From a phage, in NCBI GenBank assembly GCA_012557565.1, contig GCA_012557565.1_3926.1: a stretch of 64,000 bases of DNA. One strand, written 5' to 3'. The stretch's first letter is position 1, and the number at the start of each line of letters is the position of its first letter. Of this stretch, positions 53,126 through 53,956 are shown piece by piece. Made by a program: the position numbers and the translations under genes. Below the pieces are notes generated by a model. That model was not told where the DNA came from and ran no database searches. It saw nothing but the letters and a program-made list of their open reading frames with translations.

Positions 53126-53338
53126 ATGAAGCCTTATGGTAGACATGGTAAAGTTGAAATTGCAAGTTGTGGTTGCTGTGCTTCTCACGATGGTGAAGAA
53201 GATTACTACAAGTGGCGTACAGACCATCGTAGACGCTTTCTCAGAAGAGATAAGAAGAAAGCTAGACAGGAATCTCGAAAGAATATTGCAGAATTAGTTC
53301 AAACGGATAGAGCAGCAACCTACGAAGTTGTTTGTTAG
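53126..53338 (+). CDS. small basic hypothetical protein; 3' end overlaps tRNA-Arg(ACG)
   Basis: 70-aa ORF with AGGAG 7 nt upstream; last about 50 nt lie inside the tRNA gene, so the C-terminus may be an artefact. Confidence 0.3.
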   Translation: MKPYGRHGKVEIASCGCCASHDGEEDYYKWRTDHRRRFLRRDKKKARQESRKNIAELVQTDRAATYEVVC

Positions 53339-53364
53339 GGGTTCGAATCCCTTATTCTGCACCA
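53288..53364 (+). tRNA. tRNA-Arg(ACG)
   Basis: Perfect acceptor GCAGAAT/ATTCTGC, D-arm GTTC-AAACGGATA-GAGC, anticodon stem GCAAC/GTTGT, loop CTACGAA, T-arm AGGGG-TTCGAAT-CCCTT, CCA. Confidence 0.75.
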
Positions 53365-53382
53365 ATTTTAGAAGGTAATTAT

Positions 53383-53610
53383 ATGCGTAAACTCATTATT
53401 GAAAGGCATAAAGATGCTGACAAGATTGAAACAACACAAGTTGGGGACACTGACTTCATTCTTGTAGGTTGGAAATGTGACCCAATAGCAGTTATGAAGG
53501 TTGTTCATGGTCTTGCAGGAATTGAATTTAATCAAATCATATTTGAAACGCTATTACCAGAAAATCAGGATACGTGTAATAACGCATATGTTCTGACAAG
53601 AGTTCGTTAG
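53383..53610 (+). CDS. hypothetical small protein, tandem paralog 1
   Basis: Track ORF 53332-53610 trimmed to Met at 53383 (MRKLIIERHKDADKIE...); 64 percent-like identity by eye to next ORF. Confidence 0.55.
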   Translation: MRKLIIERHKDADKIETTQVGDTDFILVGWKCDPIAVMKVVHGLAGIEFNQIIFETLLPENQDTCNNAYVLTRVR

Positions 53611-53633
53611 GGGTTCGAATCCCTTATTCTGCA
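53606..53633 (+). pseudogene. tRNA 3' fragment (duplicate of tRNA-Arg(ACG) T-arm and acceptor 3' strand)
   Basis: GTTAGGGGTTCGAATCCCTTATTCTGCAC identical to 53334-53362; no matching 5' half upstream. Confidence 0.7.
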
Positions 53634-53654
53634 CAAAATTTAAAAGGGTAACTT

Positions 53655-53882
53655 ATGTTTAAACTCATAGTTGAAAAACACCCAGAAGATGACAAGCTTG
53701 AAACAGGGAGATTTGGAGATACTTTCTTTATCAGAGTTGGCTGGAAAGCTGACCCATTAGAAGTTAGAAAGATTGTCTACAACTTTGCTGGTTTGGAATT
53801 AAAGCAAGTCATCTTTGAAACAATGTTGCCAGAAAATAAAGATACATGCAATAACGCATATATTCTTACAAGAGTTAGTTAG
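53655..53882 (+). CDS. hypothetical small protein, tandem paralog 2
   Basis: 75 aa MFKLIVEKHPEDDKLE... paralogous to 53383-53610 (shared FETMLPENKDTCNNAYILTRV). Confidence 0.55.
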   Translation: MFKLIVEKHPEDDKLETGRFGDTFFIRVGWKADPLEVRKIVYNFAGLELKQVIFETMLPENKDTCNNAYILTRVS

Positions 53883-53956
53883 GGGATTAGTTTACAAGGT
53901 TAAAACCTCGGTCTTTGAAATCGAAGAAGTTGGTTCAATTCCAACATCCCCCGCCA
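53881..53956 (+). tRNA. tRNA-Gln(TTG)
   Basis: D-stem GTTT/AAAC, anticodon stem TCGGT/ATCGA, loop CTTTGAA, T-arm GTTGG-TTCAATT-CCAAC, CCA; 1:72 mismatch. Confidence 0.7.

Follow-up and report, generated by a model that had tools for sequence, protein, structure and literature searches.

Probable stacking of two diverged alleles of a small gene at tRNA-derived sequence in the tRNA cluster of a Felix-O1-like phage

The stretch of phage DNA analysed here (64,000 nucleotides [nt]; NCBI GenBank assembly GCA_012557565.1, contig GCA_012557565.1_3926.1; termed the window) contains, between the genes for tRNA-Arg(ACG) and tRNA-Gln(TTG), two homologous small open reading frames (ORFs) in tandem, ORF-A and ORF-B, with a 3' fragment of tRNA-Arg (termed the stub) between them. 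This array was probably generated by an unequal crossover between co-infecting related phages, which placed two alleles of the same gene in a stack. Three points argue for stacking: the young age of the joint between the two units, the narrow distribution of the array, and single-copy alleles that are widespread and deeply diverged. The 901 bases around the locus match those of Citrobacter phage BSwM KMM4 (Ounavirinae, Mooglevirus; KMM4 below) at 99.3%, and parts of this region are matched by 264 Felix-O1-like phage records; on this similarity, the window is assigned to Mooglevirus (Ounavirinae, Felix-O1-like) phage DNA. No description of this site in Mooglevirus or Felixounavirus was found in the literature.

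The original prediction had described two tandem homologous ORFs of 75 amino acids (aa), the first behind a complete tRNA-Arg(ACG) and the second followed by tRNA-Gln, and both the ORFs and the ARAGORN-called tRNAs are found at those positions (Table 1). The two products share 64% aa identity (E 5e-38) and the genes 72.8% nucleotide identity, within a direct repeat of 272 nt (53330-53601 and 53602-53873; 74% identity). The sequence GTTAGGGG occurs three times at a spacing of 272 nt, starting at 53334, 53606 and 53878, and the TAG within it is the in-frame stop of the upstream ORF70, ORF-A and ORF-B alike, as had been proposed for all three ORFs. In the window, ORF-A is the type-1 and ORF-B the type-2 allele of the gene family phrog_14202, and each is preceded by a spacer of its own: spacer A goes with type 1 and spacer B with type 2.

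The tRNA copy in front of ORF-B, originally given as 28 bp (53606-53633), is present and somewhat longer. The match to tRNA-Arg is exact over 29 bp (53334-53362 and 53606-53634) and amounts to 31/32 over 53334-53365 and 53606-53637, the sole mismatch being a CCA to CAA change at 53635. The stub thus begins at nt 47 of tRNA-Arg, in the variable loop, and takes in the T arm, the 3' side of the acceptor stem, the discriminator and the CCA; its first 8 bp overlap the ORF-A stop codon. An exact repeat of 29 bp within 64 kb is not plausibly due to chance. A second complete tRNA, or ORFs unrelated at the nucleotide level, had been named beforehand as grounds for rejecting the duplication; neither was found. 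ARAGORN calls no tRNA between tRNA-Arg(ACG) and tRNA-Gln(TTG), and a complete second tRNA at 53537-53633 was rejected, as the Rfam tRNA model gives only 18.2 bits (E 5.5, 53565-53633) against a gathering score of 29. The sequence upstream of the stub is ORF-A coding sequence under purifying selection, and provides no 5' acceptor strand.

Table 1. Features of the array and its immediate flanks, in window coordinates
Feature	Coordinates	Strand	Remarks
ORF70 (phrog_10765)	53126..53338	+	70 aa; PHROG E 3.5e-49, category unknown function; stop TAG in first GTTAGGGG
tRNA-Arg(ACG), complete, encoded CCA	53288..53364	+	ARAGORN; Rfam tRNA 59.6 bits; cloverleaf fold
GTTAGGGG copy 1, tRNA-Arg variable loop and T-stem 5' strand	53334..53341	+	11/12 match to ORF end/tRNA-Gln start; probable crossover site of the right-hand parent
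Spacer A (type 1), Shine-Dalgarno-like GAAGG	53365..53382	+	also in ESh21, L032, L033
ORF-A, type-1 allele of phrog_14202 gene	53383..53610	+	75 aa; PHROG E 4.9e-34
tRNA-Arg 3' relic (stub)	53606..53637	+	nt 47 to CCA plus A; 31/32; joint in first 8 bp (53606-53613)
Spacer B (type 2), Shine-Dalgarno-like AAGGG	53638..53654	+	identical in single-copy contigs L022, L023, L027, L029
ORF-B, type-2 allele of phrog_14202 gene	53655..53882	+	75 aa; PHROG E 1.2e-37
GTTAGGGG copy 3, ORF-B end and tRNA-Gln 5' end	53878..53885	+	same kind of site as that of the left-hand parent
tRNA-Gln(TTG)	53881..53956	+	ARAGORN; Rfam 56.6 bits

The joint between the two units lies within an exact 8-bp microhomology, GTTAGGGG, which reaches 11/12 matching bases with its flanks and 12/12 in the L022 haplotype. 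This sequence is common to sites that are not allelic, namely the variable loop and T stem of tRNA-Arg, and the end of the small ORF together with the first bases of tRNA-Gln. At the joint, GTTAGGGG is preceded by the C of the ORF end and followed by the T-arm bases TTCGAATCCC. The single-copy gene of phage ESh21 ends with GTTCGTTAGGGG followed by ATTAG and runs into tRNA-Gln, whereas ORF-A in the array ends with GTTCGTTAGGGG followed by TTCGAATCCC and runs into the T arm. The proposal that the array was made by recombination at tRNA-derived sequence is therefore supported by the position of the joint itself.

Both sides of the joint are recognizable in phages with a single copy. From GTTAGGGG in its tRNA-Arg through the end of tRNA-Gln, contig L027 is identical to window positions 53606-53956 at 350 of 351 bases, and the single difference is the CCA to CAA change of the window itself. 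The second unit, stub and spacer included, therefore corresponds to a type-2 single-copy phage from tRNA-Arg nt 47 onward. To the left, the window from ORF70 through tRNA-Arg, spacer A and ORF-A up to GTTAGGGG differs from ESh21 at 9 of 488 bases. The closest relatives of the two copies are likewise single-copy genes: that of ESh21 for ORF-A (98.2%), and those of L027 (100%) and KPS64 (91%) for ORF-B. Farther out, ORF70 and tRNA-Arg are nearest to ESh21 (99.4% and 98.7%, versus 93-96% to type-2 phages), and the DUF7217 gene to the right of the joint is nearest to several type-2 phages (98%, versus 88.5% to ESh21).

In relatives, beside the two copies of KMM4, five arrangements of the tRNA-Arg(ACG)/tRNA-Gln(TTG) site were found. 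The site is empty in Michonne (9-nt spacer). A single type-1 gene occupies it in ESh21 and ESh22 (98.2% nucleotide identity to ORF-A), and a single type-2 gene in KPS64, SFPB, KMM2 and ESh19 (90-91% to ORF-B) and in ESh20, 3HA14, Sf17-19 and Henu11 (84%). A type-2 gene (90-91% to ORF-B) is accompanied by a DUF7338 gene in HP1, and DUF7338 stands alone in PC79-13. At blastn sensitivity, the small gene was detected in 15 of the 264 GenBank records, with two copies in KMM4 only. A protein identical to that of ORF-B is encoded right after a complete tRNA-Arg on single-copy contigs from metagenomes or the Sequence Read Archive (SRA) (L022, L023/L029, L027), that of L027 being identical also at the nucleotide level. 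Alignment of the locus to itself and to related phages, suggested originally as a check, thus yields a 272-nt repeat, and a single copy in those GenBank relatives with the gene other than KMM4. No stub is present in the single-copy phages compared.

The array itself is limited to one tight clade, and the single-copy alleles are spread over phages that are 10-27% diverged at this gene. Tandem contigs always show ORF-A followed by ORF-B, with the same joint and near-identical ORFs. A scan with a degenerate junction pattern gave one more array of this kind, in IMG/VR, and only a chance match in GTDB genomes. The common order and joint, together with the single further array, indicate that a single recent origin of the array is likely.

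These distributions bear on the form of the original prediction, a tandem duplication of the small ORF in place. By this explanation, a 272-bp unit would have been duplicated at GTTAGGGG and the copies would then have diverged, single-copy phages being the outcome of differential losses. Its geometry fits the exact 272-nt periodicity and the three GTTAGGGG copies, and either single-copy form would be restored if the sequence between repeats were deleted. The ages, however, do not agree. Between ORF-A and ORF-B about half of the synonymous sites differ (proportion of differing synonymous sites, pS, 0.53; synonymous divergence, dS, 0.92), whereas the ancestral stub shows 0/32 changes: L015/L024, L021, L025, L031 and L043, the least-derived carriers, match the tRNA-Arg 3' end at all 32 bases. 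Under a binomial model, a 32-bp stretch would show no more than one difference with a probability of 5e-4 if divergence were 27%, and of 1e-9 if it were 53%. The joint is therefore far younger than the divergence of the ORFs that it connects. Neither constraint nor homogenisation accounts for the intact ancestral stub, since the stub mutates fast in carriers whose ORFs are nearly invariant. In addition, each copy is the sole gene at this site elsewhere, spacer B and ORF-B are identical to those of a single-copy contig, and the array occurs in one near-identical clade while the single-copy alleles span the 10-27% range. Duplication in place is thus extremely improbable.

A duplication within one genome would lead to the same end product if gene conversion, with a co-infecting phage as the donor, later exchanged one of the copies for the other allele, and the mosaic alleles described below (P0004/L033 and the chimera L032) demonstrate exchange within the gene. 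This route requires two events where one is enough, and its expected intermediates, A-A or B-B arrays, were absent from GenBank phages, from look-ups of encoding contigs and from the junction scan. We regard it as improbable.

In the favoured explanation, unequal crossover between related phages, the Arg-Gln site normally holds one phrog_14202 copy, with strongly diverged alleles in different phages. A type-1 phage (ESh21-like) and a type-2 phage (L027-like) would have recombined out of register, presumably during co-infection. The type-1 gene end, together with the first tRNA-Gln bases (GTTCGTTAGGGG), would pair with the variable loop and T stem of tRNA-Arg of the other phage (GTTTGTTAGGGG), and exchange inside the shared GTTAGGGG would yield the order tRNA-Arg, ORF-A, 31 nt of the tRNA-Arg 3' part, spacer B, ORF-B and tRNA-Gln. 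The stub, without a 5' half, would remain as a scar and gather mutations. ORF-A and ORF-B would keep their own ribosome-binding sites and probably be co-transcribed with the tRNAs, and the array could collapse again through recombination between the copies. As background, PMC2327257 provides experiments on phage recombinases and their action on diverged sequence.

Several points weigh against this explanation. The tRNA-Gln beside ORF-B is 100% identical to that of ESh21, versus 94.6-97.4% for type-2 GenBank phages (HP1, 98.7%); the flanks therefore do not form a clean two-parent switch, and a type-2 parent outside the sampled phages or further exchanges would be needed. No single contig can be proven to be a parent of the array and not a descendant: loss of the segment between the 32-bp repeats could turn the array into an L027-like genome, and loss of that between GTTAGGGG copies into an ESh21-like one. 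In the annotation of the first 50 kb of the relative Michonne, no recombinase is listed, and homing endonucleases, an exonuclease and a ligase are present. Also, the microhomology exceeds chance. The 11/12 match (53334-53345 versus 53602-53613 and 53874-53885) is already present in single-copy phages, and is reached by 0.013% of shuffled tRNA-Arg sequences (p about 1e-4); the next best tRNA of the window reaches 9/12. Earlier rounds of similar exchange are a possible source of this match. In HP1, which keeps DUF7338, the small gene has the same C-terminal RVR, specified by other codons.

The state of the stub is consistent with a by-product of recombination. Six point variants of the stub were found among tandem carriers with near-invariant ORFs. 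The window has CCA changed to CAA, KMM4 has C61A, and L014/L016 have a G to T change in the acceptor strand; GGGG is replaced by GGGA in L017, L018/L019 and L026, by GGGT in L020/L030, and by GGAG in L028. In non-Logan assemblies, the segregating sites number 4 per 32 bp of stub versus 5 per 448 bp of ORF (Fisher p 0.0016), and polymorphism in the stub is about 10 times that of the flanking ORFs (window plus the stub in L012-L031). Four of the six variants strike the top of the T stem (G52, G53, C61). Logan contigs are assembled with k = 31 and cross the locus only when the 32-bp repeat is broken; as every Logan contig across the locus has a broken repeat, the Logan set was treated as biased. 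When synonymous and spacer sites are taken as the reference, the excess of stub polymorphism is marginal (p 0.015), and with this bias in addition, positive selection on the stub is not claimed. The cluster in the T stem might stem from neutral decay, from selection against orphaned T arms, or from the survival of those arrays whose repeat is broken, the statistics being too weak to decide.

A functional stub has also been considered, as a processing handle for RNase P, Z or E or for the CCA-adding enzyme, as an attenuator, or as a site of a mobile cassette resembling an attachment (att) site. In favour of a function, the T hairpin is still able to fold, ORF-A lies between 32-bp direct repeats much as tRNA-integrating elements lie between att sites, and the variants cluster at the top of the T stem, so that the hairpin may matter, possibly negatively. 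Nevertheless, such a function is very improbable: the 5' acceptor strand is missing, the Rfam score is 18 bits, folding gives the T hairpin alone with non-significant z-scores (-0.9 to -1.2), and neither a terminator nor a promoter is predicted at the stub. Moreover, the six disruptive variants, which include losses of CCA, G53 and C61, occur in near-identical phages, the 272-bp unit is devoid of an integrase or nuclease domain, and single-copy phages do without the stub. The stub is most probably a by-product scar, and it is decaying.

An apparent product of collapse was also found. In L032 (an 85-kb Logan contig of SRR25035320; protein P0002), a single chimeric gene at 1501-1728 stands behind spacer A. 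Every informative site is of type 1 as far as about nt 44 and of type 2 beyond it, locating the exchange in the shared TTGAAACA. Because eight shared bases are too few, the chimera is not an artefact of assembly at k = 31. This gene is the product expected from recombination between the two copies of the array. P0004/L033 is another mosaic allele.

Of the 76 positions in the phrog_14202 profile, the two products of the small gene both cover 1-75, a full-length match, and across nine distinct sequences the ratio of nonsynonymous to synonymous divergence (dN/dS) is 0.04-0.19 within type 2 and 0.18-0.27 between type 1 and type 2. From these ratios, the full-length matches and the Shine-Dalgarno-like motifs upstream, ORF-A and ORF-B are judged to be real genes under purifying selection. 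The PHROG category is unknown function, and a Pfam search with the 75-aa products gave no match at E <= 1. A search of 5.8 billion proteins yielded only 4 clusters (90%) for the 75-aa protein, and three further small phage proteins (P0005, P0006 and P0008) came from an exhaustive profile search; a repeat protein from the same search, P0007, was rejected as spurious. The AlphaFold2 (AF2) model of the protein is of low confidence (predicted local distance difference test score, pLDDT, 63.5), and in a Foldseek comparison of this weak model with viral structures the sole match was the gene's own orthologue in Sf18.

A distant homologue is present in Felixounavirus wV8 and in about 70 phage records, in the order tRNA-Arg(ACG), homologue, DUF7338 gene and tRNA-Gln. 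As it follows tRNA-Arg in wV8 and its relatives, the small gene is an old resident of the Arg-Gln site. In every single-copy and tandem phage seen, the AG of its TAG stop is formed by nt 1-2 of tRNA-Gln. From what is known of RNase P, 5' maturation of tRNA-Gln would leave the message of the small gene without a stop codon; ORF-A in the array would escape this loss, as its TAG is located in the stub, which is not a tRNA.

ORF70 encodes a conserved, small, basic and Cys-rich protein. Its last 51 nt (17 codons) coincide, on the same strand, with the 5' two-thirds of tRNA-Arg. Over the remaining 162 nt, the ratio of nonsynonymous to synonymous polymorphism (pN/pS) is mostly 0.05-0.3 and variable sites are distributed 3:5:15 by codon position, pointing to purifying selection on the part that does not overlap the tRNA. 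ORF70 is annotated as a coding sequence in Michonne, ESh21, KPS64 and SFPB. wV8 has no ORF70, and its tRNA-Leu and tRNA-Arg are 5 nt apart. Cleavage by RNase P at the 5' end of tRNA-Arg would be expected to truncate the ORF70 message.

The process recognized here, short-homology out-of-register recombination between related phages, is that held responsible for phage mosaicism. Mosaicism through illegitimate or short-homology recombination at conserved boundaries has reportedly been described in lambdoid phages and mycobacteriophages by the Hendrix and Hatfull groups. As in those phages, a novel joint is present at a short sequence common to otherwise non-homologous positions, the parental modules are recognizable in relatives, and, tRNA-Gln aside, the nearest relative changes across the joint. 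Unlike in those phages, the homology came from tRNA gene segments, with a variable loop and T stem that match the 5' end of a different tRNA. Instead of swapping modules, the exchange probably stacked two alleles of the same gene, and parents, product, decaying scar and collapse product are all present in public data.

Tandem duplications in phages form at short direct repeats and collapse by unequal crossing-over, as known from classical phage genetics. The array resembles them in its period-exact units bounded by a short repeat and in its instability, with collapse to single or chimeric copies (L032), but differs in that its units were already about 27% diverged when joined. When integrative elements target tRNA genes, one boundary is left with a second copy of the tRNA 3' segment. 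Here also, the unit is flanked by a direct repeat of the tRNA 3' part, from the T arm to the CCA, and a functional tRNA is retained; unlike such elements, the unit is only 272 bp long, has no integrase and resides in a phage of virulent type, and its repeat follows from the register in which a homologous or microhomologous crossover took place, not from site-specific recombination. An integrative element was therefore rejected, the unit holding only a 75-aa ORF without a Pfam domain and no integrase being annotated in 50 kb of Michonne.

The tRNA region of T4 with the homing endonuclease gene segB, part of the subject of PMC2330249, is an example of an optional ORF in a phage tRNA cluster. The two regions are alike in that small optional genes stand among phage tRNAs, differ in content between close relatives and are reshuffled in mixed infection. 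Unlike SegB, the 75-aa protein has neither a nuclease nor any other Pfam domain and shows no sign of promoting its own transfer; a homing-endonuclease cassette was rejected on the same grounds.

A broader view might be that tRNA segments serve as portable recombination linkers for swapping, stacking and fusing small genes, that the 11/12 match is a footprint of repeated exchange, that stacking is selected through allele-specific targets (e.g., in host defence or tRNA-related factors), and that T-stem-breaking variants are in excess because selection favours a stable array or the silencing of an orphan tRNA half; this view is unlikely. The locus is a clean but ordinary example of phage genome mosaicism, and as it reveals no new mechanism and no protein function, its value lies in the clarity of the case and in a caution for annotation and paralog inference. 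All stages of one change in phage gene content are available in public data: single-copy parents, stacked product, a scar that dates the event, decay of the scar, and chimeric collapse. Conserved tRNA genes can provide short homology for out-of-register exchange inside phage tRNA clusters, and seeming paralogs in a phage can be stacked alleles instead of duplicates.

The other optional occupant of the Arg-Gln site, the DUF7338 gene (phrog_2143; 185-186 aa), is located at 2008-2568 in HP1 (L003), 1786-2343 in PC79-13 (L004) and 2740-3297 in wV8 (L040). The label 'holin' given to it in HP1 has no Pfam support. The small gene of KMM2 is frameshifted by a 1-nt deletion (L008, about 3090), and in KMM4 (L001, 2280-2284 and 2350), SFPB (L007) and KMM2 the 5' end of tRNA-Gln reads GGG and not GGGG; in KMM4, the 3' strand that pairs with this end is also one C short. 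The KMM2 deletion and the tRNA-Gln differences may be homopolymer sequencing errors or real changes of the acceptor stem.

The tRNA cluster of the window (50010-55238) contains 25 tRNA genes called by ARAGORN, all on the + strand, and is bounded by promoter-like sites (49953-49982 and 51514-51542) and a terminator-like hairpin (55396-55413). Inside the cluster, between tRNA-Phe and tRNA-Ser, a DUF7217 gene (phrog_2114) lies at 54265-55062; in other phage annotations it measures 244-253 aa, and the listed GTG start overlaps tRNA-Phe. It is in this segment that the window turns from ESh21-like to type-2-phage-like.

Additional tRNA-related elements are not called by ARAGORN. A tRNA-Tyr(GTA) homologue at 50567-50654 scores 22.8 bits with Rfam, under the gathering score, and, compared with the tRNA-Tyr that ARAGORN calls in 3HA14, carries a single G to T change, which disrupts a T-stem pair; to judge from this comparison, it may be a recently damaged tRNA. 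Two tRNA-like elements with perfect GGTTCGAATCC T loops were also found. The one at 50918-50992 scores 30.9 bits with the Rfam tRNA model, slightly over the gathering score, and that at 52020-52100, which has a CCA (Trp) anticodon loop and a 10-nt insertion, is the positional counterpart of tRNA-Trp in wV8.

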